Part shown: one piece after another, positions 1,935-63,331 of the stretch
Layout: each line of letters opens with the position of its first letter
How positions within the stretch are numbered: position 1 is the stretch's first letter
NCBI GenBank assembly: GCA_964482725.1
Contig: CAYZYT010000007.1
Span: forward strand, 19,875-83,874
Reading direction: 5' to 3'
Length of the DNA: 64,000 nt
Origin: an uncultured bacterium
Lineage (GTDB): Bacteria; Omnitrophota; Omnitrophia; Omnitrophales; Aquincolibacteriaceae
Made by a program: the position numbers and the translations under genes
The notes under the pieces: generated by a model
What the model was told of the DNA's origin: nothing
Databases searched by the model: none
Seen by the model: the letters and a program-made list of their open reading frames with translations, nothing else

Positions 1935-2022
1935 CGGACTACAGACTACAGACCACAGACTGGAGACTACCGCACAAAGCCCTCGATTTAAGTTTCAGTC
2001 TCGGGTCTCTCGTCTCTCGTCA
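1935..2022. repeat. GAGAC/GTCTC heptad palindromic element (REP-like), copy directly after stop codon
   Basis: gactacagac-tacagac-cacagac-tggagac ... cagtctc-gggtctc-tcgtctc-tcgtc; left arm of NNgagac heptads, right arm gtctcNN heptads; same family at 36516-36568 and 3x inside giant ORF. Confidence 0.6.
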
Positions 2023-3985: not shown

Positions 3986-4080
3986 GTATCCGCCACTAAA
4001 ACCGCGCTTGGAGTGTGGCGGGTTGTTTGCTAGACTGTCCCGTCTGCAATATTAACTTATCAATTTTCCCGGGAGATAAA

Positions 4081-6734: not shown

Positions 6735-6939
6735 TTTCCTAAACAAACTCGAGACATAAAATTTTAAAATCCGAAACGCGGGTTTAGTCTTTGAGTTTTG
6801 AACATTTGAATTTGTTTAGGGTTTAGTGTTTCGTGTTTAGGATTTGACGCAATAACGGCCCCGCCACCTGTGAAGTGGCGGAGCTTAGTACATAGCCATC
6901 TGGTTTCTAAGTACTATGTGCCATGCACCATGTACTGCT

Positions 6940-20301: not shown

Positions 20302-20327
20302 ATAGGCATCGCTGGGCTGCAATAAAA

Positions 20328-33669: not shown

Positions 33670-33785
33670 GAGCGTCTCAACCTGTTTATTCGCAATAGCT
33701 TACAAAAGGAGTTTTTTTGAGCTCTAACTGGACAAAAACAGTCTGGTTTGTTATACTTCACGCATTCCTAAAAGAATAGAGATCT

Positions 33786-34247
33786 ATGAGATATACCACG
33801 AAGACAGAATATGGAGTGATTTGCCTTGCGCATATGGCCAAGAAACCTTGGCCCGGGGCGAGTATTGCTAAAGAGATTGCCGAGCACGAAGGATTCTCTG
33901 TGAGCTTTACGGAGAAGATCCTGCAGGGTTTGAGGCGGGCCGGTATTGCCACCTCTCAACAGGGGAACAAAGGCGGGTGGACCTTGACCCGTCCCTCCAC
34001 CGAGATCACCCTCAAAGAGATCATCGAAGCTTTGGAGGGAAGCACGTTCGAGGCTTTTTGCGACATCAAACACCGGAAAAGCATTGTTTGTACTCATTTT
34101 TCATTATGTAAGCTGAAGCCGGTTTGGTACAAAACCCAAAAAACGCTGGATGAGCTTTACCAGACGATCACACTCCAAATGATCGCTGAAGATGCGATAA
34201 GCCTCCCAAAATTTGAACTGGGAGTTGTCGCGGAGAAGAAGTCATGA
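33786..34247 (+). CDS. Rrf2 family transcriptional regulator (IscR/SufR-like) heading the suf operon
   Basis: Rrf2 wHTH ([18 protein letters not shown]), Cys ligands C92/C101/C107 region [20 protein letters not shown]; stop overlaps sufB start. Confidence 0.75.
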
Positions 34248-35680: not shown

Positions 35681-35770
35681 AGGACGCATGGCGCAAGCCA
35701 CACGCCACACGAAGCTTTCCTCTCTGGGGCAGGTGGCTTTGTGGCTCGTGGCCATAATTAGGGAGACATT

Positions 35771-36514: not shown

Positions 36515-36515
36515 G

Positions 36516-36568
36516 GACTACAGACGAGAGACCGGAGACTCTAGTCTCTTGTCTCGGGTCTCAAGTCC
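36516..36568. repeat. GAGAC/GTCTC heptad palindromic element between sufC and sufD
   Basis: gactacagac-gagagac-cggagac tcta gtctc-ttgtctc-gggtctc-aagtc. Confidence 0.6.
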
Positions 36569-36577
36569 AGTGCAACT

Positions 36578-37861
36578 ATGACTCAAGCTATGGAACCATA
36601 CATGAAAGCATACGAGAGCCTGACGGCGGGCCGCAAAGCCGAGCCCGCGTGGCTTCTCCGTCTGCGCGATGAGGCGATGGCTTCGTTCACGGCCAAGGGA
36701 TTTCCCAATACGGCGGATGAAGCCTGGCGGTATACGGATGTGACGGCGATCCGGGAGGGATGTTTTAATAGGGACGGTTCTCTCGGAAGAGAACCGTCCC
36801 TGAGTGATATGTCGAGAAGGTTCCAAGAAGGAGTTGAGATCCTGGATATCGCTGAGGCCCTTGTGAAATTTCCGGAACTCCTGCAAAAATATCTGGGCCA
36901 GTATGCGGATCCGGAGAAAAATTCTTTTACAGCTTTGAATACGGCGTTTTTCCAACACGGAAGTTTTGTCAGGATCTCCGCCGGCGTCACTTTAGACGAA
37001 CCGATCGAGATCGTTCATTCCGTCGCGCCGGACCGGAAAGGTTTTGTCTTCCAACCGCGGACGCTTATTTGGGTGGAAAAGGGCGGCAAGGCATGGGTTC
37101 GCGAGATCTACGAATCGACGGGAACGCAGCCCTATTTCACCAATGCTGTGACGGAAATTGTCCTCGAGGAAGGCGCCCGTTTGGAACATAGCAAGGTCCA
37201 GCGGGAGTCTCCGGGAGCTTTTCACATCGCGATGACGCAAGTGGCCCAGCGCCGCGGGAGTTCATTCACTTCGTTCGCGCTGTCGACCGGCGCCCGTTTG
37301 ATGCGCAATGACTGCCGCGTGACGTTGGCGGAGGAAGGCGCCTCTTGTGAGCTGAACGGGCTTTATCTGGGGGACAAGGAGCAGGTGCTGGACCAACAGA
37401 CCTTTGTGGATCATCAAAAACCGGACGGCAAAAGCGATCAGTTCTTCAAGGGACTTTTGGCCGGGAATTCCCGGGGAGTTTTTCGCGGGCATGTCATGGT
37501 GCGTCAGGACGCCCAGCGGACCGACGCGCATCAGACCAACAAGAACCTGCTTCTCTCGGATACCGCGAAGGTCGATGCCCAGCCGCAGCTTGAGATCCTG
37601 GCTGATGACGTCAAATGCAGTCACGGCGCGGCCGTCGGCCAGCTTCAGGAAGACGCCCTTTTTTATCTGCGCTCACGGGGGATCGGTGAGACGGAAGCCG
37701 GGCGCATGTTGGCTCAGGGGTTTGCTCGGGAAGTGATCGAGCATTCGAGCCTGAGTTTTATGAAGGAAGAATTGACGAAACTAATGAATGAAAAGCTGGA
37801 AAAACAATTTTGTTCGTGCAACGGTCAACGATTGACGGTCAACGAAGAGCCTTTGCGTTGA
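36578..37861 (+). CDS. sufD: Fe-S cluster assembly protein SufD (carries in-frame 30-bp hairpin insertion)
   Basis: SufD family (EAWRYTDV..., C-terminal beta-helix); 36780-36809 gggacggttctctcggaagagaaccgtccc encodes RDGSLGREPSL in frame. Confidence 0.85.
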   Translation: MTQAMEPYMKAYESLTAGRKAEPAWLLRLRDEAMASFTAKGFPNTADEAWRYTDVTAIREGCFNRDGSLGREPSLSDMSRRFQEGVEILDIAEALVKFPELLQKYLGQYADPEKNSFTALNTAFFQHGSFVRISAGVTLDEPIEIVHSVAPDRKGFVFQPRTLIWVEKGGKAWVREIYESTGTQPYFTNAVTEIVLEEGARLEHSKVQRESPGAFHIAMTQVAQRRGSSFTSFALSTGARLMRNDCRVTLAEEGASCELNGLYLGDKEQVLDQQTFVDHQKPDGKSDQFFKGLLAGNSRGVFRGHVMVRQDAQRTDAHQTNKNLLLSDTAKVDAQPQLEILADDVKCSHGAAVGQLQEDALFYLRSRGIGETEAGRMLAQGFAREVIEHSSLSFMKEELTKLMNEKLEKQFCSCNGQRLTVNEEPLR

Positions 37862-37910
37862 TCTTTGCTCGTTGTTCGTTGACCCGATTTTAAAATGATG
37901 AGGCCATAAA

Positions 37911-39149: not shown

Positions 39150-39183
39150 ATGTTGTTACGCCGTTTCTCCGATGGAACCGATC

Positions 39184-39222
39184 CAACCTGCCAGGTCAAC
39201 CTGCCAGGTCAACCTGCCAGGT
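39184..39222. repeat. 13-bp direct repeat x3 (caacctgccaggt)
   Basis: Three perfect tandem copies between sufS stop and sufU start; followed by tggatgg partially complementary to the unit. Confidence 0.5.
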
Positions 39223-39243
39223 TGGATGGGCCGAGGGGGTCCG

Positions 39244-39699
39244 ATGAGCGGGGATATCCGGGAGCTCTATCAGCAGATGATCATGGACCACAACAAGAAC
39301 CCGAGAAATTTCCGCGGGATGACGGACGCCGACCGGGGCGTGGAGGGCTACAATCCTTTGTGTGGTGACCACTTCAAGGTTTACTTGAAAATGGAAGGGG
39401 ACCGGATCAAAGATATCAGCTTTGACGGGTCAGGCTGTGCGATATCGAAGTCCTCGGCTTCGATGATGACTGCGGCCCTCAAAGGTAAAACGCGCGAGGA
39501 AGCCAAGGCTCTTTTTGAAGAAGTTCACAAGATGCTCTCTCGTGGGATCGGCGAGCCGTTCGATGCGGCGAAGGTCGGAAAGCTTGCGACGCTCGGGGGT
39601 GTGTGTGAATTCCCATCGCGCGTCAAATGCGCTTCGCTGGCGTGGCATGCTATGCTCGAAGCCCTGGAGCCGACGGGGAAGCAAATAACCACAGAATAG
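39244..39699 (+). CDS. sufU: SufU/IscU-like Fe-S scaffold / sulfur acceptor
   Basis: Conserved Cys in NPLCGDHFKV, GSGCAISKSSASMM, KCASLAWHA; ATG 39244 after gagggggt RBS. Confidence 0.8.
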   Translation: MSGDIRELYQQMIMDHNKNPRNFRGMTDADRGVEGYNPLCGDHFKVYLKMEGDRIKDISFDGSGCAISKSSASMMTAALKGKTREEAKALFEEVHKMLSRGIGEPFDAAKVGKLATLGGVCEFPSRVKCASLAWHAMLEALEPTGKQITTE

Positions 39700-39777
39700 A
39701 TAAAATAGGATGGCGGAAGGCGGATGGCGAAAAAACGGTTTTACTCCCTCCTCCATCCGTCATCCTGAAGAGAGCCT

Positions 39778-40101
39778 ATGCCAGAAAAAACTTTAGACGA
39801 CCAGATCTGGGACCAGCTTCGCCTTTGCTACGATTATGAGATCCCAGTCAATATCGTGGAGTTAGGGCTCATCTATGGCTTCAAGGTGGAAGATCTTCCG
39901 GAATGCGGGAAGTCGGTCGAAGTCCGCATGACATTTACAAGCCCCATGTGTCCGATGGGGGACCTTATCAAGAAAGACGTTGAACGCCGCGTTGAGACTG
40001 TGCCCGGCGTCAAAAAAGTCTCCGTCGAGATCGCTTTTGACCCTCCCTGGGATCAATCCCGCATGACCGAAGCTGCGAAGCTTCAGCTCGGTTTTTTGTA
40101 A
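39778..40101 (+). CDS. sufT: DUF59 / SufT-like Fe-S assembly protein (MIP18 family)
   Basis: IVELGLIYG...TSPMCPMGD pattern typical of DUF59; 107 aa; last gene of suf cluster. Confidence 0.75.
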   Translation: MPEKTLDDQIWDQLRLCYDYEIPVNIVELGLIYGFKVEDLPECGKSVEVRMTFTSPMCPMGDLIKKDVERRVETVPGVKKVSVEIAFDPPWDQSRMTEAAKLQLGFL

Positions 40102-40275
40102 TCTCTTCCCCCAACCCAGGCCCGGGTCTCCCTAGGGCTTTAACGCCAAGGCAATTTTTCGACACATGTCATTGATTAAAGATGCTATATCCTGCCATGA
40201 ATAGGGGATGGATTTCCCAAGACGTTTCAAATAGACATTTTTGATAAAAAACTCGAAATTTTTAGGCTCTCGCCC

Positions 40276-40304
40276 TTGCTTTCCAAGGGTTCATCAGTTA
40301 TATT
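40276..40304 (+). promoter_or_regulatory. candidate promoter of giant gene in AT-rich leader
   Basis: TTGCTT - 17 nt - TATATT in the only strongly AT-rich stretch of the window (40200-40397); aggatga RBS 8 nt before ATG 40398. Confidence 0.3.
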
Positions 40305-40397
40305 TTTTACAACTTTCTAAACATTAAAAAAAATAAGATAAAATCCGTTTCGAAATCAAAGAAATAAAATCTGTTTTCCTAAAGGATGAGCCGCTGA

Positions 40398-43300
40398 ATG
40401 AATTCAAGTAAGCCTATCAAGTCGTTCATTGCTGCGTTTACAGCCTTCACCTTTTTCTTCACCGGCCTGGGCATTTCACCCAACGCTTTTGCTTCGGGGG
40501 GTGCTTCTCTTGCCCCCGAAGTGTCTCTACCTTATCAGGTTAAGCTGGATCAAAATCTTCGTGTCACCATTCCTCAAGAATTAGGCAAACTCGAAAATTT
40601 TAAAATGGGCCAAGGGCCCGCCATCTTCCATATCCAGGACGCGCACGGTCATTACGAAGGCCAGCAGAAGATCCGCCAACTCCTTGGATTTCTGAGCAAG
40701 ACCTACGGGGTCAATACCGTGCTCGTGGAAGGAAGCGCTTTCCGGCTCAATTCCGAAAAGATCAACTTTTTCCCCAAAGATGTGAAGAAAACGCTTGCCG
40801 TGAATGAAGAGTTTACCCGTCGCGCGTGGGTTTCGGGGGCGGAGCTTTTTCTTTTAGACAGACTACAGACAAGAGACCAGAGACAAGAGACTAAAAATAA
40901 AAATTTAAAACCAGCTTTAGGTCTCCAGTCTCCAGTCTCCAGTCTCTGGTCTGGCGGCGAAGCCGCCGAGGCGCTCGGAATTGAGAATGCGGAGGCGTAT
41001 CGCTCAAACGGCCGGTCGTTCGTGAATGTCCTCACGGAAAAACAAAAGACGGAACAATTCCTCGCGGACATGAATATGCAGATCGAGCGTCTTGCGAGCC
41101 ACTCCCTTAATAAGGAGCTCCGCGACTTTCTCCGTCGGGTCGAAGGTTTCGAAAAGAATCAAGTCCCGCTTGATACCTGGCTTGCCAATCTGAAAACGGA
41201 AGCGGCGAAGAGCCTTGAGATCGATCTCGCGTCACCCGCTCACCAGCTTGATTGGCCGATGCTTGTGCGTATCTACAAGATCCAGGAGCTTTCTTCTAAG
41301 CTGGATCGAAAATCTTTCCCCAACGAGAGGGACGCATTCCTTAAAGCGATTCGGAGATTCCTACCTTCGAGGACTACAGACCCGAGACCCGAGACCCGAG
41401 ACCAAAACCAAGATAAAGTCTCCAGTCTCCAGTCTCCAGTCTCCAGTCAAATCGAAGCGTTGCTTCGTAACGATTCGATGAGTCAGCAGTTGCCGGATCC
41501 GGAGACAGGGTTGCTTTTTGAAGATATGGTCAAGCGCCTTCCGGAAAATTTCAATTATGAGGCGTTCCCGAACGTCCGAAATTTTATCGGAACACTCCTT
41601 CTTCGGAGCGAACTTAAAGCAGATCGCTTGATGAGGGAAGTCCAGAAGCTTTCGGAGACCCTCACCGCCAAATTGATCCGTAATAAGGAAGAACAAAAAC
41701 TCGTCGCGTTGCTCGCCGACCACCGACTGCTGCAGAAGCTCTTTGCGCTGGAGCTTACGCCGGCGGATTATGAAATAATCCGCGGGGAACGGCAAACGGG
41801 CAACGGTGAACGTGAAAACATAGAGCCGTCAGAAATCATTCGCCGATTTAGCGAATTCGTTCCCCGTTCCACGTTCCCCGTTTCCCGGGTGAAGTCCGTC
41901 CAATTCTCCCATGTTGCTGAATTGGATCATCTATTCGATGCAGCCATGAAGTTCTACTCCGGCGTCAAAGCCCGCGACGGAATGATGGAAACGAGAATCG
42001 AGGAACGCCTGAAAGAGACCGGCGCGACCAAGGTCGCCGTGATCACCGGCGGTTTCCACAGCCAGCCGATGCAGGATCACTTCATTAATAAAGGATATTC
42101 CTACGCGCTTATCACTCCCAAGCTCTCCGGGGCTGACGAAACGGGCCGCGACGGTTATCTCCAAGCCGCGCTTGCGAGCATTCTCCCGGCGCAAAACACG
42201 TACAAAAATCCCTTCATTTTTACGACGGCCAATCCTGCGGGTGACGGCGCGTCGCTCGCCGGCGTCAAAACGGCCGTGACGGATGTCCTGCAGAAACTAG
42301 TGGCTGGCGGTGCTCTTTCGAGTGCGGACGCCAGGGGCGTGACGCGTAAATTGGCGGGAAAAGCAGACCAGACCACAGACCAGAGACCACATACTGCAGC
42401 CAATGCTTTAAGTCTCCAGTCTCCAGTCTCCAGTCTCAAGTCCGACGTGGGCCGCTCCGAAGCGCGGATGGATCTTCGCGGCGATGCTGAAGAGATGCTG
42501 AAAAGTCTTAAGGTCAAGCCCGGCACGGACGGAGCTTCGGTGACATTTACTTTTGAAGGTGAGTTTCCGGACAAACCGAGCCCGATGTCCGTGACGTCGG
42601 CTGCGGAACTTTTTGATCTCTTTCAAAAGTTACAGGAATTCGGGATCCTGCCTTCTGATCCTGATGTGTTGATGCTCATCGGTCCCGGGGAAGTGGTGGA
42701 GGCGGAGGAGGGGCACACTATTACGATCAAGCCCGACCAGTGCATGGTGGTTTTTAAAGGAGGGACTGAGGCCACGGTCATCCAATGGCAGGATGCCTAT
42801 GGCATCAAGCAGGTCCTGCAAAAGATCATTTTGTGGTTGGGGGCTTCTTCTGGTCCCAAGGTCACTGTAAAACTTAGATCCGCCGCTGCCGCGCCGGCCA
42901 TTCCCGTCGCAGCACCCACCGTCGGAGCCAACAAACTTCAGCTCAAAAAAGAGGTTCCTTCGCTCAAGAACCTTTCGCCATTCAAAAATCTATTCGGAGG
43001 TCTGAAATCGCTCGGAGAAGCGCAGATCATTTCAGAAGCCCCCGTTGCAATTCGAGATGCCGCGAGGATTCTTGGGACTTTATCCCAGAAGTTTTCGTTC
43101 ACGGCTCTTGGGTTCGTCGAAGCTTCAGGGAATCTCGCCGATCCTTCCAAGGTTGCGTGGCTGCCGACCCTGGGGAATCCATCGGCAGGAGAATTGATGC
43201 AGAATCTGAGCGTTACTGCCTCCGGCGGGAACGCGGATGCTCTTTGTGACGTTGTCATCGCACCTTATAACGGAGAACGATTTGGTTCGCAATCCGGCAA

Positions 43301-46300
43301 CATGCTTTTTCTTCTCCCGCAGCGCTCCGAGGTCCGTCTGGAAAATGCCGGGCCGGTGAAGGATCTGGAGGCGATCAAAAAAGAGATCCGGTCAGCTTTG
43401 GAGGCAAATGATGCCGCCCACACGTTCAAACTTTTCGGGATCACGCTTCTCGCCGGGACTCACGTCGCGGATTTCGACGCGCGAGTGGCTCAAATGGATT
43501 CTTCGCATCTGGCCGCGTGGCTTGACGCTATTTTGCCGGTTCTTGAAAAGGTGGCGTCAAAGGTTGTGGTGCACGTTGGGTACGATGACCATGGCTCAGG
43601 GAACGCGGATGTAAAGCTTTGGATAGCTCTAATGAGTCTGAAAACCCAACTTAATAAAGCGAGGGCGGCCGAAGCGCCTCTGGCGCAAGGGACAAAAACC
43701 GCTCCAGCAGCTACCGCCGTACGCTCGGAAGCGCGGGCAAAGAAGGTTGGGGTTGTTGTTTCCGTGCGGATCGCGGTTGATCTTACGAAATATGACCGCA
43801 GAACCTTGGTCCGGGATGTTGCACTCCGGGAAATTGAAGAAAAAGTTGGCGCCAGGGCCGCGGATGATTATTTGTGGCGTGTGAGATTTTATTTCAACAA
43901 TGATGGCAGTAATGACGTTCGAGAGTTGAGGACTTTCGTTTCGTTGAACGCTTTGAAAGAATGGCTGAGACCATCAAGACGTACGAGATCAAATCTTACG
44001 ACGCTTGATATCGAAGGACTACCAAGCATCTATGCGCCTGCCGTCCGCTCTGAAGGGCGTGGGCCGCAGGAATGGATGCAAGAGGTCGACGCACTGACAG
44101 AACAGTTTTCTCAAAAATTTCAAGAGTCTCAGGCTTCCGGATCCGCGGAATTAGCGTCGCTGGAAGACCGGCTTGAGGATATCGAAAAAATTCAAGGGAG
44201 AATGAGAGTTCTTTCCCTGGTGATCCCGAGAGAGGTTGTGGCGATCGAGAGAAGAATGAAAGGCGAGCCTTCCAAAGAAGATTTCTCTGCGGGACTTGCG
44301 GCGCAGCGCCCATCGCTTCGCGATATGACTCGCGAAATGGAAGCGCTTTACGAAAAAGCGATTGCTCTCAACAGTGTCGAGACAGATTCCGTGAACCGGT
44401 TTCCGATCGCCCCTGTTTCCGTGGCCGGGCATTTCGTCTTCTTGGGTGGGCCCCTGGGGAGCTTGTATACGGCACTCAATAACGCCCGTGCGGAAGTGCG
44501 GACACAGGAAACCCATTACCGGAACACGACCGCGGAAGGGAAGATGCTCGAGATCGTTCAGAAAGCGGCGGGAAGTGAAATTCTTTTGGATGGAGCCAAT
44601 GTTGGGGATTGGAAACGGAATCCCGGCCTCAACGATGGCAACGACAGGATCGTTTTCGGGGACTTGCAGGTTGAAGATCATAATGTCACTGTTTTATTCG
44701 ATCCCTCAGCTATGGCGGAAGGCAAACAGCCTTGGCTTGTGTCTGTAGATGGGGATGACCACGCGGAAATGACGGCGCCGGTGGTGAATGCCGTTCAGGC
44801 TTTTATCAAACAGTCGATCGTGTCCGTGGAAACCTCTCAAGTCGCGGCTCCGGCCATCGAAAAAGAACAGCCGGTGGCGCCTGCCGTCGTGACCCCTGCG
44901 GTAGAAAAAATTGCAGCGGCTGTTTCTGCTGTGCCGGTGGCGCCGCGGGTTTCTGGGCGTATCAGTTTGCCGAAAGAAGTGAGACCTGTGGGCAGCCCGG
45001 TGGCGAGTATCAAGCTGGGCGCTGCGTTAAAACAATTTGAGGCCGAAAGCGCTGCTGCCGCAAATGATCCTAAAGCCGTAGAAACGCGGCGTCTTGCAGC
45101 GGAAGTTGCGGCAAAGGCAAAGAACGCGCAGATGCTAATCGGCAAAAGCGGCGGTGCTCAAAAACCGGCGCAAATACGCCGGGGCGGATTGATCGACAGA
45201 CTTCCCGGGTTGCCGGAGCGCGAACAGGCCCGGAATGTATGGCCGGCATTTGAAAATTTTTATACGAGACTTCTCGCCGAAGGTCAGGCGGAGGCATTAC
45301 TCAAGCTCCTGAAGGAAACGGAACAATATACGAAGACACGGACCCGCGCGACTTTTATCGCTGCGGGGATCGCGGCGGTTGTGATCTCGCTTTCGTGGCT
45401 TATCACGGGCGTCGGAGTGGTGACCATGATGGCGTCGTTTGTGTGCGGCGCCGGAGTTCTCGGAACGGTCTGGTTCTTCAATAATAATGTTCCCGATCTT
45501 TTGCGTTTGACCGGTAGTGGTGTGGTGGCGTTGGTGCCACTCTTCCAGAAGGCGGTTGACGACGTCAAAGCGAGGGAAGCCAAGCTCGCGGGCCGTGGGC
45601 CCCAGCCGGCAGCCAAGGGCACGGAAAAAGATGAAGAATCGGGTTCGTTCGGCAAACAGCTTTCAGATCTGGCCGCCCAGGCAACCGATGCGAAAGTTTG
45701 GGACAAAGGTGTGATCATCCCGAAACTTGCGGAAGTCATTGCCGGTGTTCCGGAGTTGACCGGTACGCAAATGCCGGTCCAAACGACGCTTGGGAAAACC
45801 CAGCCCGAAAAAACTCCGAATGGCATGATATCCAAGGGAACTCAAGGCCGTTCGGAGGTTAGGGCGAATACGGTTCCAGCCGCATCGGAAGAAGCCCTGC
45901 GGAATGAATTACAACAGATAGAAAGACAATTAGAACAGATCCAGGACCGGCAGGTTCAAGGGGAGGACGTCGGCTTGGCACGCGAAGATGTTCTCGCCCT
46001 TCAAGGACAGCGCGCAGCGATCCTGGAAAGTTTGGGGCTTACCACTCGTTCCGAAGTTCGGCTGTCGCCCGTTCAAGAACGGAAATTCCAGCAGGCGTTG
46101 CGGGATCTTCAGGCGAAGTGGTGGGACGGGAGCTTCAATGATCATGGCGCGGGACGCAAAATTGCTGCCGCCATCCTTCTTGGCGAGCTCAAAGATCCCC
46201 GGGCCGTTCCGGCATTGACGGAAGTTTTAACGGATGAATACGAAAAAGTACGTCGCGCCGCGGCCTCAGCGATCGAGTTGATCAATAATAATACTGAAGT

Positions 46301-49300
46301 GCTGAACAATGAACTCCGGAGGATCGAGCAGGCGCTGGGTCAGATCCAGGACCGGCAGGTTTTGGGTGAGGATATCGGCTGGGCACGAGAGGATGTTCTG
46401 GCGCTCGAAGGTCAGCGTGCCGTGATCCTAGAACAATTGGAACAGGCAAATCGTTCGGAAACGCGGAGAGGGCAAGAAGTTTTGCCCAAGATCGATCCTA
46501 CAAAAACGATCGCCTGGAGAGAACTCAAGGAACTCTCATCTCTGATGCAGAGGGAAGCAATATCCATGAGAGGTATGTTCGAGGCGGATCCGAATCGTTT
46601 CGATAAGTATTCCGTCCGGTTGGGCGATGATTTTCTTCTGGATTATTCGAAGAATCGGATCGACGGGCATGTTATGGCGGCGCTCATGAATCTTGCGGGG
46701 CAGACACGTTTGCAGGACGCGATCGAGTTGATGTTCACGGGCGCGAAGATCAACGAAACTGAAAACCGAGCGGTGCTCCATACCGCGCTCCGGGCTCCGG
46801 CAGATGCGGTGATCGAAGTGGACGGGATGAACGTTGTGCCGGACGTGCATCAAGTGCTTCAGCGGATGAAGAAATTCACGGACGATGTCCGTTCGGGCGA
46901 ATGGAAGAGTTACACCGGCAAGCGTATCAAGAATATCGTCAATATCGGAATCGGCGGTTCGGACCTCGGCCCGGTGATGGCCTACGAAGCGCTCAAGAGT
47001 TACAGCGACCGGGATCTGACGGTCCGTTTCATTTCAAACGTCGATGCCACGGACTTTGCGGAAAAGACCCGCGATCTCAAACCGGAAGAAACACTTTTCA
47101 TTATTGCCTCCAAGACGTTTACGACACAAGAGACCATGACGAATGCCGGAACGGCTAAGGCCTGGTTTCTGAAGAGCGGCGCGAAAGAGGAAGATGTCGC
47201 GAAGCATTTTGTGGCGGTTTCCACGGCAAAGGAGCTCGTCAAAAAATTCGGGATCGATACGGCGAATATGTTCGAGTTCTGGGACTGGGTCGGCGGTCGC
47301 TATTCCGTGTGGTCTGCGGTCGGTCTCCCGCTTATGTGCGCGATCGGTTATGAAAATTTCCGTGAGTTTCTGGACGGTGCTCATGAAATGGACCGTCATT
47401 TCCGGACCGCGCCTTTCAATCAAAATATTCCCGTGATCCTCGCGCTCCTCGGGATCTGGTACAACAATTTCTTTGGCGCCCAGTCGCAGGCGATCCTGCC
47501 TTACGATCAATACCTTAACCGTTTTGCGGCTTATTTCCAGCAGGGCGATATGGAGTCGAACGGAAAGAGTGCCGGCCGCGACGGCAAGCCCGTCACGCAT
47601 CAAACCGGTCCGATCCTTTGGGGCGAACCCGGGACGAACGGCCAGCACGCCTTCTATCAATTGATCCACCAGGGGACGAAATTGATCCCGGCCGACTTCA
47701 TCGGTTTCGCGAATTCCCTGAACCCGATCGGAGATCACCCCGAAAAACTCGCAGCCAATCTTTTTGCCCAGACCCAGGCGCTGGCGTTCGGTAAAACAGC
47801 TGACGAGGCGCGCGCGGATCTTGTTGCGGAAAATGTGAAAAAGAAAGCGAAGGGTGAAAAAGAATTAACTGCCGAAGAGATCGAAAGTCTCATTCCTTTC
47901 AAAGTATTCGAAGGCAATAAACCGACCAATACGATCCTTGTCAACCAACTGACGCCGCGGACGCTCGGGGTGCTTGTCGCGATGTATGAGCACAAGATCT
48001 TCGTGCAGGGCGTGATCTGGAATATCTACAGTTTTGATCAATGGGGGGTCGAACTTGGTAAAGCGCTGGCGAGCGGGATCCTGCCGCAGCTTGCTCCGAG
48101 CGCCGAAGTGAAAGGGCAAGATAGTTCAACCTCCGGGCTGATCGGTGTTTGGAAGAAAATGAGCGGTCGTTCTGAACTCCGTGGGATCATCGCTTTGCGT
48201 CATCGGCTGAAGAGCCTCGTGATGGTTTCTGCGGCGGCGGGGATGATGGGTTTTTCCGGATGCGCGACTCATAATGTCGGGACGCAGGCGCCCAGGTCCT
48301 ATCCGCCCGCCCCTAGTTATGATTATCGGCCCTTATATAAAAAGCCGATTTTGCCAAAGACCCAAGTTCCTAAATTTAATTTCAAACAGAATGCCAATCC
48401 GCCCGCTTTTCGGCCCCTAAGGCCCGTCGCCCCCATGCCGAAGATGCCCGCGGCGCGTTATCGTTCGGAGACGAGAGATTTAGAGCTGGAGAGACTTCTT
48501 GCAGCAAGAAAGGAAGTGCAGGATGTTGCGCGTGAGCAGCTTTCCAATCCCAAATTGATCGAAGCGCTGAAAAAACGAGCCGCACGGGAAGGAAAGGTTT
48601 TTCAGGTACCCTCCATGTCGCGCCGTTCTGAACTGCGAGGCAATGTTGAAACCCGGGATCCGGATCTTGAGAGATTGATCGCGGCAAGGAAGGCCGTGCA
48701 GGATACTGCGCGTGAGCAGCTTTCAAATCCAAAATTGATCGAAGCCTTGAAACAAAGAGCCCTTCGAAAAGGAATTGTTTTTTCGGAGCCTGTCTTTTCT
48801 GCAGTTCTGATCATCGGACTAGGGTTGGGCGCAGTCTCAGCGGCGCTCGCTCAGGCGAGTGTTACAAATGAAAACGCCGCCCTGACCCACCGGCCGAATT
48901 GGGCCGAATTCATGGCCACCTCGGATAGAAGTGATGTTGCGACGACGTTGGTGAAGTTTACCCGTGCCGGCGAAGAATGGGCTCGAAAACGCGGCAAGAC
49001 AGTGGACTATACGCCGGCATTTTTGGAAACGATGAAAGAAAAGATCAGAAAAGGGGAGATTCGCGACTCCCAGGAACTCTACAACCTGGTCATTCGCTGG
49101 GTCGAGCACAACGCCGTTCCCTCGGGCAAAGCCACTCGATCGACACGTACAGGTGCCGCAAGCAGCACGGAAGAGCGCAGCGAACTTCTCACTGCCCCTG
49201 AAAAAGGAACTGCAGAAAGTGCTGAGAGTGGCGGCGAAGCCAACACCGTGCGTGCCGAGATCCGGAATGTGGATGAATTTACGGGTAAGTTGCTCGAAGA

Positions 49301-52300
49301 GACCCAGCTTGGAGCAGAAATGCTTGCTTCCGAACTCAATGACGCGGTGTTGTTCGAGAACCTGGACACCGCTATTCAGCGCGCGATCGAACAAGTGCTC
49401 GGCGAAATGGATCAGAGCCCGGATCATGCCGCGGATTTTTACATAAGAGATCGCGATAATATTATTTCCAATCTCGAATCCCGCTCCGAGAATCGTCTGA
49501 TCGCAGGAGTGGCCGAGAAGGGAATGTCCTTTGAAGAGGTTCGCGAGGTTTCGCGCGCCCGCCGGAAAAAAGCGGCGTGGCAAGGAGGCATCCAATGGTG
49601 GCCGAAGGTCAGTGCCTTTCTGGGAGGCAATATTGCTTCCGCAGGGAATCTCGTTGCGCCATTGGCTGAAGAATCCGTCTATCAAGGTTCTTTGGACGTA
49701 CGTTCCGAGGCCCGTCTGTACAAAAAAGCCTGGGCCCATGTGACCGCGGTGACGTCTTCGGCCAAAGGGTTGAATCCGCTCTATGCGGTGATGACGGCGG
49801 CGGTGATCGGGGTTTCCGGATGTGCCAATTATCAAGGGGGGCTGTTGCACTCACTCCGGCATAATCCGCCGGCCAATATTCCCGATTATCGTAACCACTA
49901 TAGTCCTCCTCCCTATTATCGCGCTCCCTATGTTCCTAAGTCTCATTTTAAGCCGCCCGTTATTCCCATAAGACCGGTGCCCTCCGGGCCGAACCGTTCA
50001 GAGGTTCGAAAGTCTGTTGTTGGGAATAGCTCCAATCCGGTGGTTTCTCTCTGGGGCCTTGACACTTTTGACAGCCAACAGGGGTCGGTTCTGACCGCCA
50101 TTAATTCTGAATTTGTATTCCCGGGAGATTTCCAATTGCAAGCATCTCTTTTGGCGGATTATTCGGTGATTGAGGAGCTTCACCAGGGTTCCTTCAAGGC
50201 AGGGGATAAACAATATCATTTGGTGGTCGATGTCGGAGAGTCGATCGCAACTTTAAGACTTTCATTGGATGGAGAAATGAGGCTGACCGGCTGGAAATGG
50301 CTCAAAGATATCAGGTCCGAAGTTCAGGATTTGGCGCGTCACCCTTATGGGCTTTTAGCGGAAGTCAATGAAAGTCTGAGACGGCAGAATATCCCGGAGG
50401 TCAAACAGGAAACGACGCAAATTTACGGGCAGCAGCTCATCCATGGCGTCGAAAGCATCTTGGAAAAATTCCGTGGAAAACCCTTTACCGGCATTACCTA
50501 TCAACAAGTCGCCGGACGGTCGGAAGTGCGAACCGTAGGCTCCTCCGCGGAGGAATTGGACCGGGCGATCGATGCGGCCTACGTGAAAAAAAGACAGCTT
50601 GAATCGAAAGTCGGGGAAGCCAGGAGAAACTATGAGTCCTCGTACTGGCGGGAAACGGATGCCCGGCGCAGGGAAAATCTTCGCGATGGGGATCGGGATC
50701 TCGAGCAATTGAAAGATGAAACGGACAGCCTCCGTGTGACCCGCGACTCTCTGCAAAAAGAGCTGGAAACCGTCACGATCCAGATCCGGCGGTTGCTGGA
50801 CGAGAAGCATCCCGTGAAACGCTCGGAAGTGCGGGAAACGACGAAGCAGGCGCTGATCAGGGTCAATGCTGAAATGGAAGGGCTCGATCGATTGATCTCG
50901 GAGCTCACAAGAGCCCCGGAGTCGGCGGACAAGGACGAAAGGCTTGAAGCGCTGAACGCAAGTTATGACGAGCTTGAAGAAAAACGGCAGCACCTCGCGC
51001 GGCTAGGAGTGATCAAAAAAGCCTGGGCCCATGTGTCAGCCGTGACTTCTGCAGCCAAGGGACTCAATCCTCTCTACACGGTCGGGCTGGCAATTTTTGA
51101 ACAATGGTTATGGCATCCCCGAAGCCTCACGCTCGCTCAGGCAGCTCATGTCGAGCAAGCCGCATCGATGGAAGCGCGTTTGGATACCCTCCGGGCATTG
51201 GGCGCGAACCCGGGCCTGGGCTATCAGCGATTTGTTTATCATTTGATGCGCGCCGAGTTATCGCCTTCCGAGTGGCGCCGTTTTGACCGCGCTTTGATGT
51301 GGGAAGTTGATGCTGAGAAAAAGGTAGCGTCTGTACGTTCGGAACTGAGGGGTGGGAAAAACATTGCGGGAATGTTGAAACAAAAAGGCCTGGATGACAA
51401 CGAGATCCGTCTTTTGGCGGCGGCCGTTCTAGTCAGTGGGGGGAGAGGGAACCTCAGTCAGGCTGGGGTCATATTAAAGAATACGAATACTCTTCCGGAG
51501 GTGACTCCGGAGATGCTGGTGGCTTTCCAGACGCTCATGTCCCGTCCGGAAGATATGCGGGCGGTATGGCTGAAGCTTGATGACCAGCTCCGATTTTCAC
51601 ATGACATCGAGGCTCTTTATTTTCAAGACGAAAATCTCGGCGCTGCACACCGTTTAATGCATAAGGCACAGGTTCTTATCGATGTTTTTCGGGCCCTCCG
51701 CGGAGAGATTTCGTCCATGGGCAATCGTTCTGAAATCAGAGCCGAAGTTGATCCCGAGACGGCGGCGAAGATCGCGGATCGCTGGAAAAAGATCCGCTAC
51801 ATGGAAACGGACCCCGAGGGCGTGAAGCTCAAGGCCGAAGCCGAAGAAAAGGGCGAAGGTTTCCTGAATAACGCCCAGGCGACGATCCGTAAAGTGGCGG
51901 CTCAGATCAAGCTCGATCCGAAGATCCTTGAAAAGCTTTTGCAGTTCACCAAAGTCATTCGTGTCAAGATCCCGCTCACCCTCGATGAGGGCGGGGAGAC
52001 GCAATATATTGACGGATTTCGGATCGGCCACGCGCCCTATCGCGGGCCCTACAAAGGCGGCATCCGTTTTGCGATCGGCGTTGTGGAAAATATGATCAAG
52101 GCCCTCGCGACAGAAATGAGCGTCAAGAACGCTATTGCCGGGCTTCCTTACGGTGGCGGCAAAGGCGGCGTTGCGATCGATCCGAAGTATTTGTCGATCA
52201 AAGAACTTGCGCGTCTGACCCGCGGCTATGTGGAGCAATGCCTGAAGCAGGATCCGAACGCGTTCGGGGCGCTCCTGGATGTTCCGGCCGGAGATATCGG

Positions 52301-55300
52301 AACGACTTCCCGTGAGATGGGCTGGTTCGCAGATGAATTCCTGCGGATCAAGGGTTCGGATCTTTTTGATACGGATGGATACCGGGACTTCCTCGCAAAA
52401 GGGGATGAAAAGGGAAAGCCTTACGACGAAACCGGAATGCCGCGCCTTCAATTCTATATGAAGGAATACTACGGCAAACGGCATATCGACATGAGCGAAG
52501 GATCTCTCATCGCGACCGTGACGGCCAAACCCGAAGGAAAGGGCGGTGCTGTGGGGCGTACGCCGGCGACCGGCCTTGGTCTTTATTATGTGACGCGGGA
52601 TGCGCTGAAGATCTACGGGGATCGCCTCGGGATCGGTGCGAGTGTCGCGCAGCAAAGAATCGCCGTCGAAGCGTACGGGAATGTCGGAAGTTACGCCGCG
52701 CGGAGCTTTTTTGATAACGGCGCCAAGGTCATGGCGATCAAAGAATTTATCGGGAGGCCGGTTGCAGTTGTCGCCACAACGGATCGCGGTATGGATCTGA
52801 ACAAACTCGACAAGCATCTGGCCGAAAAGAACGCGGACGGCACATCGAAGAAGAACACGGTCCTGACTTATGTGGAAGCGCATCCTGAGGACGCGCGCCT
52901 GGCTACGATCGAGGGGTTCTGGTCAAGCGACGTTACGGTCCTCGCCCTTTGCGCCAAAGAGAAAACGGTCAATAAAGAGATCGCCGCGCTTATCAAGGCA
53001 AAGATCATTTCGGAAGGGGCCAACGGGCCGCTTGAGAACGACGGATCCGAACAGATCCTTCTGGATAAAGGCGCGATCATTCTTCCGGACGTTGCCACCA
53101 ACGACGGCGGCGTGGCATTCTCCTCCCTCGAGTGGCGGGCGAATAATATCGGCGAATCATGGCCGGAGGTCGCGGGGAACGGTCTGATGGAAGACAAAGT
53201 CGTAAGTGCCTTCTATGATATTTCCAGGGTCTCCGAATCCCAGAAGATCACGCTCCGTGAAGCGGCCTACCAGATCGCGATCAGCAAGATCGTGGACGCG
53301 ATGCTCGCGGCGGATCCCGAACTGGGGAATCTTTTTGATGAAACACATCCCGCTTATGTGATGGATGCCGGGGCGAAGCGCTGGCGGCCGGAGACCTGGC
53401 AGGAGCTTCGTCAGATCGATTCGCGGAAGGCGAAGGCCGCTCTGATCGATCGGGCCGACGAGGTCATGAATAAAAAGATCGATGAGATCGTTTCGGAAGC
53501 GCTCCGTGACCTTCCCTCAAAACGGGGCAGTGTGATCCTGATCGGCGGCCCGAGGGCTGCCGGGAAACCCATGCTGGGTGCGAACATGTTGGCGAAACTT
53601 CGTGCCCGGGGGCTCAAGGCCAGCATTCTTGATATGGATAATCAAAGGATGGATGATCTGACCAACGTTCTCCGGGGAAAGAAAGTTCCTGTTCTTCTCG
53701 AGGACGGGTCGCGGGACGGGGATCTCCAACTCGGCACAGATGAAATATTGATCGTGAATGGCTATTACGCTTTGGGCGACGAGATCCTCCGGAGGATCCA
53801 TGCCATCCAAGGAAAAGCATTCCCCCTCATTGCTTACAGCTCCCCGGACATTCTTCTTTCTAATAACTGGGCGCTGACGGCTTACGATGTCCGGCTGATG
53901 CGCGATACTCTGAGCGGCCTTGTGGTGGGGGAAGAAATGAGTGTCCAGGAAGTGATCCGCCGGTGGCAGCTCCAGCGCGTTTCGGAAACGGAAGCTGTCT
54001 TTGCGACCTGGAAGAACGCCAAGCGTGCGATCAACACCTATTTACCTTACGAATTACCTTTCCTGAAATCCCTGGTGGGGCCGCTCATCAAGATCGCGAT
54101 CGCCCAGGAATCCCGGGAACCCGGGGATGACGGGTATACGCTGAATGTCCTGCGTCATCTCGACAGCCTCTTGCGCAATGTCGAAGGCTGGGACGTTTCC
54201 CTGTTGGAAGGTCATCATGATTCCGTATTGTGGGAATACGTCCAGCGCTATGTACCGAATGGCACGACCGGGGTTCGTTCCGAATTGCGCGGCGGGGCCG
54301 ACCTGACCCGCGAAGCGAAGCTCGAGCAGTATTCCTGGAAGTTCCTCGGCCATGTTTGGGGCGTGACATTGTCGGGATTGGCTTTCGCGGCCGGAATATT
54401 TTACGCGGCCGAAGCTTTGGGATACCTCTCGGTGGCGGGACAAATTTTCTCCGAATTGTGGGCCGCTGGATGGGTTTTGGGTTATTCCATGATCATGGCC
54501 CTCGTCGGTGGGTTCGGCGTTTCTTATTTTATCCGGTTGTATCAAGAAACAAAATCCGGGGCGCTCGCGGAACTGGCACAGGAAAGACTTGCGGCGGATC
54601 TGGAAAGTGTGAAGGACCGGATTACGAAGGAACTTTCCCGCTATCCTTCGATCCCGCAGCGTTTCACAGCAGGATTTCAGGCTGTCCGTAATGACTTATC
54701 TCAAGCGGATCAGGTCATCAGCTATCTCGAAGCCTTGGTGGGGGATCTTACGACCTACGGAGAAAAACATCCTTCGGACGCAAAGGACGCCTGGGCCACC
54801 TGTGATGTCCTCGACAGGATCGCCGAAGAACTTTCTTTTTATCCGGATTCTTCGCGCTCGGAAATCCGGTCGAAGGAAGACTTTGCAGCCTTCGTAGATA
54901 AGTTTTTGAAACGTTCGGAAATCGTCAAAGAACTTGATGGTGTGGAACTTACGCTTCGTGCCATCAAAGAAATGGCGCAGGAAGCCATTCCGGACGACAA
55001 GATGACTCGTGTTGTGAGCGATGTGATGCTCCGGGCGGCAAAACAGGATGGATTGAAGCAGCCGCTTATTCATAAGGGTTTGAAAAATGCCTATCCCAGG
55101 AACTCCCAGCGCGGAAAACGGGTCATGGCAGAGACCCTTGCCGAAGCCTTTTCGGTCGCTCTTTCAGGCAATGATCCGTACGATGTCCGGGAAGCTCTGA
55201 CGGTTTTCCGGCGGGCGCTCACGGCCTATTCGAAGGAAACGGGCAGTTTTTCAAGTGGACAACAAGAAGCGGCAAAGACCTTGGCTGCGCAGCTGGGGAT

Positions 55301-58300
55301 CAAGTGGGACCGGATCCGAAGCCATGGGCTTTTGGCTTTTGATATGCAGAAAACACTTGTCGAGCGCAAAGAGATCCTGACCGATGGGTTGAGGGATGGT
55401 CTTATATGGTTGCTCTCGGAAGGGGTTCCTGTCGTAGTCATTTCGGCCAATTCGCGCGAAGAGATCTGGCAACAACTTATGGAGCCGATTCTCAAAGAAC
55501 TCCGCGCCCGGAATAAACTCTCTGTCATCGAAAATATGCTTGTCTATGCCAATAGCGGGACGTCGAAGTACTGGGTCGACAGTATGGGCGAGCGGCACTT
55601 GGATGTTGGGTTCAGTAAACAGTTCATGATCGGGCAAGAGGTCGAGCGGGCGATTCAGGAGGGGCTTAAAGATCTAGCCGTGAGGGGATTTTTTATCCCC
55701 CCAGCGGAGTGGCCTGCTTTCCGGGATCTTTATGAGAGGGATAAAGTTAAAGATGGCCTGGAAACGGAATTTCAGTTCCCCTGGATGGGAAAAAATATTT
55801 CACGAAGTGCTTATGAACCTTCCATCGTCCAGCGTTTAAAAAATGAAAAGATCGTCCAGGCCCCTTATATCATCCGCCGTGGACTTTTGGAAGGGGACGG
55901 GGATCAGCGCGGGACCGCGCTTGCGATCCGGCAGTTCTTGCCCGGCCAGCGGGAAAAAGCATGGCATTCCTTGGAGGAATTGTTACCGGCACGTTTGGGC
56001 GCTTTGGCGTCACAGTTCGCACTGCGCGGGGGAGGGGTATCGACGATCGATCTCTCCAATAAAAACGCGAATAAGGCCATGGCTTTTCGCGATGCCGTTG
56101 GATTTTTTCAGAAAAAGGGTCGCCGGGTGGACTTCCATGATGTTGTCTACCACGGGGATGAGGTTTGGAGGGGTTCCGAGGGAACCGCGGCGAAGAACCG
56201 CGGGAACGACATGATCATGCTCGAAAATGATTTTGACGGAGATCCGGGATACAAAAAATTTCAAGTGGTAGCTTTTAATCCGAATCCTCCCGAGGGGCTT
56301 TCTGCCGAGTACCAGACCCGCACCTCCTACATCGGGGGGGAGCAGCGCGGTGTGGAACTTTATCTTGGGTTGCTGAAGCAATCGGTTGAAAACCTCCGCG
56401 AGAGGAGCGGCGAAGCGGTTCCCGTACGCTCCGAGGTAAGGGGATTTGTGGCGCTCGCGGAAAATGCGCTCAAGAAGCGTTGGATCAGTGAAGCGGCTCT
56501 TGCCAATATCCGTTCATGGTCCGGGCCGGAATATGCCCGTGTGCATGGCCAGTTGGATGAAGAATTAAAAGCGGCGGGACAGGATCCGAAGGCTTGGTCG
56601 AAGATAAACGACGCGTGGTACACGAAGGTTGCGGTTGGTACGGCCGGAATGCGCGGAACCCTGGGGCTTGGGACGAACCGGATCAGTGAATACACCCTCG
56701 GTTCGCTTATGATGGCCCATGCGCTTTCCGTGAACGATCCCGCTTATACGCAGATCATTGAAGAAAATTATCCGGAGTTTCGTGCGAAGGATCTCCATCG
56801 CGCGGTCGTGATCGGCGGGGATTCTCGCTATGGTTCCTATGATGCTCAAACGAAAAAACCGGGCCGCCACATCAAACTCGAAGCGCTTATCAATGTGGCG
56901 TTGGGTATCAAAGCCTATGTGTTCAAGAGTCCCGCCTCTACGCCCCAGTTGGCATGGGCCGTTCATGAACTCGACGTTGAGCCCACGGACCTGCTTGTTT
57001 CGGGCTCCATGAATACTGCCAGCCATAATCCGCTTACCGATAACGGGAATAAACCCTACAAGATCGACGGGTCGCAGTCTACCGGGGTATTTTCGGAGCT
57101 TATGGCGAAAAACCTTTCGAATGCCGGCGTTACCGCTCTGAATGCCCTCACCTATGATGGCTTGAGCGTTCTGGAGAATGTGGACGAGGCTTTTGCGCGC
57201 GCCGTGGCCAAGGGCGATATCCGCTGGGTCGGCGGGACGGACGATGATTCCTATGCGAAGGATGCGTACCATGCGGATGAGCTCTTCGTTCAGCGCGAGC
57301 TTCAGGAAGCTATCCATACGATCAACGGGATTTTTGATAACGCAAAGATCGATCTTGGAAATTCCAGGATCGTGATTTCGCCGCTTTTTGGCGTGTCACG
57401 GCACATCCTGAAAAAGATCATTAAAGCTCGCGGCCTGAGCGAAGACCAGATTGTTTGGGTCGAGGATGAACCCAATCCCGATTTCCCAGGAGTGAAAGGC
57501 GGCAAGCCGAATCCCGAGGAACCGAAGGCGCGCCTGGCCGCTCTCCGCAAAGCCGTAGAAGTGAATGCCGACCTTGTGCTTTGGACCGATCCGGACGCCG
57601 ATCGTCCCGCGGTCGCTGCCAAGAAAGATCTGACAAAGAAAGCTGTTTCGACTGACGATTACGTTTCATTTAACGGCAACCAGCAGCTGGCGATCCTGAT
57701 CGATTATCTTGTCCGCGAGCTGAAGTCGCTTGCGGCGGGGCACTCCCTGGCCGATGACGAAACGCGGACTCATCTGGCGCGCCAGGCCGCCGTGATCATG
57801 TCCAATATAGGGAAAACGTTCGCAGCATTCAGTCTTGTTTCGGCCGACCTTCCGAAGATGATCGCGCGAAATGCCGGGATGGAAGTCGTGGGAACACTGG
57901 TCGGCTTCAAATATATCGGCGACCAGATCGAGCTTCGTTCCAAAATGATCCAGAAGCTTGCCGGGATCACCGAGACCGAGTGGCAGGGTCTGAGCAATTC
58001 ACGGAAGCTCGAATTGGGACTTCAGTATTCCCAGGCCTTTATCTTCGGCGGTGAGGAGTCGCTTGGCGCTCTTTCAAGCGACGGGCCGCATGACAAGGAT
58101 GCGCTCGCGGGAGTGATGTGGTTTGTTGAGATCATGGGCCGTCTCCGGAAGGACGGACTTACGTTGAATGATCGCCTGACGGAAATTTATAAGACGTACA
58201 GCTATTTCTCCGAGCGCTTTCCGATGCTCGAAAAAGGCAAGACTTATGCCGGGGTTGATCTTAGCGAAGACGAGGCCACTCAGGTCATTAAGGCCGAGAA

Positions 58301-63173: not shown

Positions 63174-63331
63174 AGCCGTATACCGTGCAGCGTATGTCGA
63201 ATGTCTTCCTTTTGTGACATACGATCTTCGATATACGACATGCGGTCGCGCACTAAGTCCTTTCCATTCCACAGCTTCATTGCTAAAATACTTCCTCGAT
63301 TCGTAACCTATTGGGTAAAAGGAAGATAGCA

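Follow-up and report, generated by a model that had tools for sequence, protein, structure and literature searches.

How does a palindromic DNA repeat come to stand both between genes and, in frame, inside one of them? The question is raised by a stretch of 64,000 nt from an Omnitrophota bacterium (the window, meaning the whole 64-kb stretch that was analysed). Here, hairpins made of GAGAC and GTCTC heptads occur five times: two lie directly 3' of stop codons and three are in frame within a giant gene, a single uninterrupted open reading frame (ORF) of 7,591 aa on the + strand (40398..63173). An earlier note on this DNA had located all five. It had taken them for a miniature palindromic repeat, of repetitive extragenic palindromic (REP) or terminator type between genes and inserted without a frame break into the giant one. 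Comparison with orthologs and with other phyla bears out the insertion and leads to a different kind of repeat. The elements form a DNA-level repeat class of inverted heptad arrays, which are neither ancestral coding sequence nor copies of a whole unit, and they are found in short gaps immediately 3' of genes and, within genes, in permissive loops or linkers. The heptad hairpins are a much broader class than the GAGAC family from which the question arose, with many cores in many phyla, and as a class they appear not to have been described before.

The element plan consists of two inverted tandem arrays of a 7-nt unit, made of a 5-nt core and a 2-nt variable spacer, around a loop that is specific to each copy. 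The motif GTCTCNNGTCTCNNGTCTC, with at most one mismatch, has 15 matches in the window against 0.00 expected from 100 dinucleotide-preserving shuffles. Self-similar runs of period 7 number 11, compared with none of periods 5, 8, and 9 and two of period 6, and Tandem Repeats Finder reports period-7 arrays with 77-100% matches. Every array in the window has a reverse-complement partner within about 55 nt. Between genes, copy A (1935..2022) starts 4 nt past the stop codon of ORF 150..1931 and has about 5 + 3.5 heptads around a 26-nt loop, while copy B (36515..36568) fills the sufC-sufD gap right after the stop codon, with 4 + 4 heptads and a loop of 4 nt. Predicted RNA folds of the GAGAC elements are stems of 5-bp blocks with 2x2 internal loops between them. 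Relative to shuffles, copy B and the three intragenic copies reach z = -2.8 to -6.2, and the fold of copy A is weaker (z = -1.4). The intragenic and intergenic copies belong to one DNA repeat family, as had been proposed, in which the copies have only the heptad cores in common: spacers and unit numbers vary from one copy to the next, and the loops of the five are unrelated. The arms (GTCTCCA)n are identical at the dispersed intragenic sites 1-3. A leader gactacagac, ascribed earlier to the whole family, is present in four of the five copies and not in all, and the same proportion has the outer heptad GGACTAC in common. Inverted-repeat and tandem-repeat searches together with inspection of the intergenic gaps raise the number of heptad-periodic hairpins in the window to 11, with at least five different cores; six are intergenic, one lies over a stop codon and four are in frame.

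The four in-frame hairpins all fall inside the first 2,047 of the 22,776 nt of the giant gene (~9%; P = 6.5e-5 under random placement). Site 1 (40860..40955, + strand) is a GAGAC/GTCTC hairpin that forms a 96-nt (32-aa) insert at aa 155-186; this copy, given previously as 40858-40953, is real and its limits are corrected here. Site 2 (41372..41448, +) carries the same type of hairpin at about aa 325-350, with arms (AGACCCG)x3 and (AGTCTCC)x4. Site 4 (41783..41880, +) differs in having AACGG/CCGTT arms, which encode aa 462-472 and 488-496, and a 52-nt "loop" that is a conserved coding segment. Site 3 (42364..42442, +), again GAGAC/GTCTC, encodes aa 656-682 in a disordered stretch after the conserved N-terminal module of the protein. 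The predicted translations of the three GAGAC copies are exactly those quoted in the earlier note, and the read-through product would be a short hydrophilic peptide (ETRDQRQ... / ...SLQSPVSS). Because 7 and 3 have no common factor, an array of at least three heptads runs through all three frames. If the heptad has no stop, all three frames are consequently open, and translation passes through any copy with a length divisible by 3. Read in any cyclic frame and on either strand, the arm heptads of the window are free of stop codons. Antisense ORFs of 120-145 aa extend over the in-frame hairpins (41361-41795, 40703-41071, and 42155-42574, all on the - strand); these are spurious and arise because the heptads are stop-free on both strands.

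The conserved N-terminal module spans ~600 aa and is followed by PGI (aa 2082-2582), Glu/Leu/Phe/Val dehydrogenase (GDH), phosphoglucomutase (PGM), and HEAT domains. It matches no Pfam family and has no significant fold match in the PDB (best E-value 0.18). A match to erythromycin esterase at rank 34 is not significant either. Homologs of the first 833 aa come nearly all from Candidatus Omnitrophota, and in other Omnitrophota the C-terminal parts joined to the module are of quite other kinds (PAS/HATPase, isocitrate lyase/phosphoenolpyruvate mutase). In the AlphaFold model, the predicted local distance difference test (pLDDT) score of the module is 75-90 except at aa 173-187, 326-345, 491-495, and beyond 595, and these low-scoring, non-regular segments match sites 1, 2, 4, and 3, respectively. 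The model suggests that the in-frame copies are tolerated in permissive loops and linkers of the predicted fold, in agreement with the linker role assigned to them before.

A further property of the coding copies concerns the strand on which they fold best. Of 29 in-frame copies drawn from many genomes, 25 have an antisense RNA fold more stable than the sense fold (binomial p = 1e-4; the copies of the window and of its ortholog L135 are orthologous and hence non-independent). With the sense fold systematically weaker, the wobble-type mismatches are C·A on the mRNA. This bias is consistent with an mRNA hairpin that is being eroded, or with selection for hydrophilic codons, and a selected mRNA hairpin in the coding copies is rejected on this ground. 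A GAGACTG unit would encode ETGDWRL; the units observed, GAGACCC and GAGACCA, encode Arg, Asp, Glu, Gln, Pro, and Thr.

Orthologous giant genes show how the sites are occupied in relatives. The alignment comprises 12 sequences, and the DNA of 13 distinct ortholog loci was tabulated between conserved protein anchors. At site 1, the 32-aa insert is missing in 10 of 11 aligned homologs. The site is filled in the window and in L135 (85% aa identity), decayed in L138, short in L141, occupied by a GAGTTCG family in L137 and by an AGAC type in the distant L002, and empty in six other orthologs. Site 2 has AGAC-type arms in the window, L135, L136, L138, and L141, over a range of 50-100% identity. Other families stand there in L001 and L134 (GTACGG), L130 (GGATGG), L139 (GGGACTC), and L137 (CCACA), and L133, L132, and L002 have nothing there; the insertion point is consistent across orthologs to about one codon. 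At site 4, complementary arms of three different families surround one conserved KPSxxxxRF segment in the window, L130, and L138, and in L001, L134, and L135 a compact GTACGG hairpin lies just past this segment. The left arms of L138 are decayed at sites 1 and 2, and L001 and L134 carry one 14-nt-periodic right-arm variant at two sites. Presence and absence of the intragenic copies do vary between orthologs, and the copies are additions with respect to most homologs. Where filled and empty sites are compared, the element takes the place of a few native codons with no duplication of the target, and the left junction falls at a Glu codon (GAR) in the empty alleles. The idea that the loop is the native target sequence is true at site 4 alone and was rejected as a general rule: the loops of sites 1 and 2 are without counterpart in empty orthologs. 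At the level of the aligned sequences, the intragenic copies do not go back to coding repeats of an ancestor; old sites have been used repeatedly, and by changing occupants. The elements are lineage-specific, persist for long at particular sites and are replaceable in place.

Changes over a shorter time are visible between the window and L135, which are 86% identical in DNA outside the elements. The arms of site 1 are near-identical and its differences lie in the loop. The left-arm units of site 2 have changed in concert, AGACCCG of the window corresponding to AGACCAG of L135 in each of the three, and site 3 differs by a 12-nt indel that preserves the frame. At site 4, the whole segment of ~150 nt is swapped, and that of L135 resembles L001 and L134. 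Around it, the alignment is a mosaic (41760-41900 in the window, 2840-2960 in L135), the L001/L134-like patch including the normally conserved PSxLxxRF segment, which points to a recombined patch with hairpins at its borders. The intergenic hairpin at 39706 is of GGATGGC type in the window and is represented at the matching position of L135 by a CACAA/TTGTG heptad hairpin; both here and at site 4, the heptad family differs even between these two genomes. Arms are mismatched at 7 of 182 positions and flanking coding DNA at 188 of 1,642 (Fisher p = 0.0009), so that the arms diverge about three times more slowly than the flanking coding DNA, whereas the loops (7/58) diverge at the rate of the flanks.

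The elements extend well beyond Omnitrophota. A scan with the pattern GAGACNNGAGAC-N(4-34)-GTCTCNNGTCTC, in which each species is represented by one genome and phylum proportions are not estimates, finds at least 119 loci in more than 100 genomes of about ten phyla, compared with ~17 expected by chance (calculated from the information content of the pattern). Among the matches listed are Chloroflexota, Gemmatimonadota, Acidobacteriota, Planctomycetota, Verrucomicrobiota/Kiritimatiellia, Bacteroidota, Actinomycetota, Peribacteria of the candidate phyla radiation (CPR), Proteobacteria, and Omnitrophota, and they include isolates with complete genomes. About 100 of 125 GAGAC elements have at least three heptads in an arm. 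Runs of period 7 at the scan loci number 282, compared with 8-50 at each remaining period between 4 and 12, and many of the arrays have other cores. Among arrays independent of the search pattern, 44 of 115 have an inverted partner within 100 nt, as opposed to 11 in the control. The elements are depleted in long open frames (median spanning frame 740 nt vs. 1,236 nt at random positions); about a quarter of them across phyla lie deep inside such frames. Nine in-frame cases among the matches listed have Pfam domains on both sides. The hosts, essential genes among them, are IleRS (in two Peribacteria, at different positions), SecA, Lhr helicase, Mfd, CoaBC (in two Acidobacteriota, both times in the Flavoprotein-DFP linker), a DAO/GCV_T oxidase, and an FGGY kinase. 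In the two Peribacteria IleRS genes, filled and empty sites are reciprocal. These synthetases (L067 1219-6030, L020 1142-5119) also have one or two His_Phos_1 domains inserted besides the hairpins. On another Omnitrophota contig (L108), GAGAC hairpins occur three times in frame within a single open frame of 5.8 kb, whose protein shows no relation to that of the window by BLAST.

The 125 GAGAC elements have arms of 2-7 heptads, which agree in length to within ±1 heptad in 75% of cases, and a median loop of 15 nt. Their spacer dinucleotides are complementary in 35% of cases vs. 6% by chance. Unrelatedness of loops is general, since within 16 other multi-locus genomes the mean local score between loops is 5.1 vs. 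4.1 in the control. Copy-specific loops together with the lack of duplications argue against transposition of a whole unit, even though loops evolve no faster than flanks. Flank profiles of the 125 copies contain a fading heptad signal only, with no target motif and no sharp terminus, and although four of the five window copies include CTAC within the outer GGACTAC, the 125 copies have no conserved flank tag of the kind found in REPs (GTAG/CGTC). No target-site duplication is seen in the comparisons of filled and empty sites, where the boundaries are fuzzy and short duplications could escape. A consensus terminator scan of 33500-43000 reports no heptad hairpin, its total count being that of shuffles, and no T runs follow the right arms of the window hairpins; lacking T tails, the elements are not intrinsic terminators. 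No transposase, REP-associated tyrosine transposase (RAYT) or nickase is found among the genes of the window. Taken together, the copy-specific loops, the lack of target duplication, target motif, sharp ends and T tails, and the absence of a transposase from the window do not support the nature suggested in the earlier note, that of a miniature inverted-repeat transposable element (MITE), a REP or a terminator. The same note thought that the resemblance of the core to a type IIS restriction site might be incidental, rightly so: in the rest of the window, GAGAC/GTCTC has 97 occurrences, with 95 expected, and ranks 297 of 512 pentamers, neither avoided nor enriched, and for this lack of site bias a link to type IIS restriction-modification is rejected.

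The two arms follow each other in a preferred order. With other cores, 28 pairs are asymmetric in composition; 24 of them have the purine-rich arm 5' and 4 have it 3', which are modest counts. AGAC-type pairs found independently of the pattern have the purine-rich arm 5' in five of five cases in other phyla and five of five in the window, and no reversed AGAC-type pair is found among the pairs independent of the pattern. Scans of viral contigs for both arm orders give 4 vs. 5 matches, too few to inform on polarity. Such purine-first polarity is not predicted by hairpin formation, which works equally in either order.

The remaining hairpins of the window belong to other families and lie at gene ends. 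The suf operon (Rrf2-sufB-sufC-sufD-sufS-nifU) has four gaps, each with a different heptad family that starts 0-10 nt after the upstream stop codon. Copy K (35688..35755, CCACACG/TGTGGC) fills the sufB-sufC gap; copy G (37818..37884, CAACG/CGTTG) overlaps the final codons and the stop codon of sufD (37859-37861); and copy H (39706..39765, GGATGGC/CCATCC) lies 7 nt past the stop codon of the NifU-like gene. Copy I (63177..63237, CGTATAC type) starts 3 nt past the stop codon of the giant gene. Copy J (6738..6845), a weak and uncertain member 3' of the glycogen phosphorylase gene, is a GTTTAGG-type period-7 array with a partial inverted partner; its unit at 6814-6845 is a circular permutation of the plant-type telomere repeat TTTAGGG, a likeness that is probably a coincidence. 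Other repeats are present as well. A second, unrelated palindromic family (GTCATTCTGAGC ... GCTCAGGATGAC) has two intergenic copies, at 6600-6720 and 22629-22690, the former with a larger loop insert. At 39178-39230, three perfect copies of the 13-nt unit CAACCTGCCAGGT make up a near-perfect palindrome at the start of the NifU-like ORF (39172..39699). The intergenic regions 3570-4014 and 20302-20645 have very stable predicted folds (-0.44 and -0.46 kcal/mol per nt), and an inverted repeat of 25 nt lies in the latter (20372-20396 / 20490-20514). Both regions could represent further repeats or structured RNAs, though without a match in Rfam, a scan of which over the whole window gives 0 matches at gathering thresholds. 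A search of the window for tRNA and tmRNA finds none. Outside the window, in Anaerolineae CHL7, a GAGAC hairpin is the center of a larger palindrome (GGTCATAAACTGACATTTTCAGT ... ACTGGAATGTCACTTTATGACC) at two loci in opposite orientation (L061 3640-3750, L070 6865-6975), possibly a composite element.

What, then, produces and maintains the arrays? On balance, we think it somewhat probable that they are heptamer-repeat hairpins that have grown by slippage, are homogenized arm by arm and are tolerated in frame, an origin that we infer in the following way. Slipped-strand mispairing would let the arrays gain and lose 7-nt steps, intramolecular template switching (quasi-palindrome correction) would keep the arms complementary, and short-tract ectopic conversion would homogenize arms between loci. 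With the homology available to conversion limited to the arms, loops would stay unique and the divergence of arms would be slowed. Within genes, selection may erode the sense-strand hairpin and favor hydrophilic codons, and one hint as to how new copies could be seeded is the microhomology with GAG/GAA codons at the left junction. Several observations weigh against this explanation. Slippage and template switching alone leave the arm-order polarity unexplained (24 vs. 4; 5:0 and 5:0), and the recurrence of one pentamer core in distant phyla, the switch of a site to an unrelated heptad family and the position of the site 4 arms on either side of native sequence are likewise not accounted for. 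Moreover, unbiased conversion should not slow substitution, and the threefold slower arms may reflect selection on them; the three families that form arms around one segment at site 4 look like conservation of a structure; and the outer GGACTAC of four of the five window copies suggests common descent of the copies. It is conceivable, if rather improbable, that the hairpins are instead written de novo by a widespread activity which would extend both 3' ends of a break, or of a pair of staggered nicks, by tandem 7-nt units. Joining of the ends would then yield (H)n - filler or native segment - (reverse complement of H)n. Such writing would explain the purine-first order, the unique loops, the absence of target duplications, the internally uniform arms with differing spacers and the arms around a native segment at site 4, and, provided that palindromes are prone to breakage, also the replacement of families in place. 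If it were true, the elements would be repair scars of an unrecognized templated-addition process in ~ten phyla, tolerated even in essential genes.

A mobile element of MITE or REP type would be mobilized in trans (e.g., by a RAYT or by an enzyme of the IS200/IS605 type), with only the in-frame copies surviving in genes. Identical arms at dispersed copies, such as (GTCTCCA)n at sites 1-3, the presence/absence polymorphism between orthologs, the shared outer heptad, the right-arm variant at two sites of L001 and L134, and the larger CHL7 palindrome at two loci all suit such an element, as would, by analogy, the in-frame palindromic elements of Rickettsia (PMC10969869). It is nonetheless unlikely, given that loops are unique even within one genome, though they evolve no faster than flanks, that neither target duplication, motif nor sharp ends are seen and arrays fade into their flanks, that spacers and unit numbers vary between copies, that relatives hold unrelated families at matching sites, and that the arms of site 4 flank native coding sequence; the lack of a transposase in 64 kb is weak evidence in the same direction. 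Another possibility is a structure under selection, be it an RNA (an intercistronic stabilizer or processing site, REP-like) or a DNA with 7-bp protein sites (cf. omega/ribbon-helix-helix heptad operators), in which the sequence could be exchanged as long as a heptad hairpin stays at the position. The arms, not the loops, are about three times more conserved than neighboring coding DNA; position is kept and family replaced at site 2, site 4, and the 39706 gap; three families arm one coding segment at site 4; four suf-operon gaps are filled 0-10 nt past stop codons; four in-frame copies crowd into the first 9% of the giant gene (P = 6.5e-5); and arm order is constant. This possibility is likewise unlikely, since the sense mRNA fold is weaker in 25 of 29 coding copies, the opposite of mRNA-hairpin selection, many orthologs lack the elements, the left arms of L138 are decayed at sites 1 and 2, there is neither an Rfam match nor a terminator-type T tail, and the several families per genome would call for several specific factors in the protein-binding version. 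As for ancestral low-complexity coding repeats, that is, ordinary linkers whose DNA is repetitive by chance, the copies are indeed in frame and in segments predicted to be disordered, and site 2 is old within the clade. This reading is nevertheless counted as refuted and retains hardly any probability: matching DNA units occur in non-coding gaps, the period of 7 nt is not divisible by 3, one half is the reverse complement of the other, homologs are without the repeats or have unrelated heptads at the matching codon, and the element is also found in unrelated proteins of other phyla. The earlier note had named as its own refutation intragenic copies shared by all homologs as coding repeats with no intergenic counterparts, which is not what the homologs and the intergenic copies show.

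If the proposed view is right, inverted pentamer-core heptad arrays belong to bacterial genomes in general, from Omnitrophota to Chloroflexota, Acidobacteriota, Planctomycetota, and CPR, and they would repeatedly join proteins (IleRS, SecA, Mfd, CoaBC) and be a source of new linker peptides. "Selfish DNA inside genes," known mainly from the Rickettsia palindromic elements (RPEs), would then include an element of another kind and reach across many phyla. The strict 7-nt period, the purine-first polarity, the slow arms, and the in-place turnover of families point to an undescribed mechanism that generates or maintains them. For annotation, the elements are a warning, as they yield spurious antisense ORFs and odd low-complexity segments. 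The excess of heptanucleotide repeats in bacteria has long been noted, and to our knowledge it has no accepted explanation; the elements give it a concrete and comparable substrate.

Among known systems, the nearest in construction are simple arrays of heptamers. Heptanucleotide simple sequence repeats are described as the most abundant long class of such repeats in bacteria (Mrazek 2007, as cited in PMC4679880 and PMC4692102). In Xanthomonas, 70-75 convergent inverted pairs of GGGAATC arrays are present, for which no mechanism is given (Rehm et al. 2015, PMC4692102). These arrays and the heptamers of the cyanobacterial short tandemly repeated repetitive (STRR) sequences resemble the present elements in their tandem 7-nt units, their close convergent inverted arrays, their many dispersed copies, and a position that is conserved with a length that varies between relatives; the known arrays lie mostly between genes, as do six of the 11 hairpins of the window. 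Unlike the Xanthomonas arrays, the elements described here have GAGAC and other cores that are not G-rich and lack G-quadruplex potential, and they occur in about ten phyla, with a 5+2 core/spacer plan and often in frame, none of which is described in PMC4692102. The papers searched give no account of GAGAC-core heptad hairpins, of their cross-phylum spread or polarity, or of in-frame copies in housekeeping or giant genes. Two papers on Omnitrophota giant genes do not mention palindromes, hairpins or heptamers, and a query for heptamer repeats in Chloroflexi, Gemmatimonadetes, and Planctomycetes led to ecology papers only.

The palindromic repeat families of bacteria each share part of this plan. 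Palindromic amphipathic repeat coding elements (PARCELs, PMC2996958) are DNA palindromes that are translated within genes and open on both strands, but their coding units are longer, specify an amphipathic motif, and are neither heptads nor intergenic hairpins. MITEs are small, have inverted-repeat ends and a non-coding origin, and occasionally have in-frame intragenic copies. In contrast to the present elements, in which none of these traits is found, they have a common internal sequence, target-site duplications and defined termini that derive from a parent insertion sequence. REP and REPIN elements, mobilized by RAYTs (PMC3116915, PMC3733652), are likewise short imperfect palindromes that are highly repeated, lie just past genes in operons and form hairpins; they differ in having a conserved sequence with a GTAG or CGTC tag, no 7-nt periodicity and an extragenic location, whereas the heptad hairpins are in frame too and have unique loops. 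A close parallel is provided by the RPEs (PMC10969869), in-frame palindromes in unrelated, often essential genes at positions compatible with the fold, which also occur in non-coding DNA. RPEs measure ~100-150 bp, have a family consensus over their whole length and are restricted to Rickettsia, while the elements described here measure 50-110 bp, consist of heptads around unique loops and are spread over many phyla. Like RPEs, they are palindromic repeats that lie in frame in unrelated genes at fold-compatible positions, and what sets them apart from RPEs is that they have heptad cores in place of a whole-length consensus.

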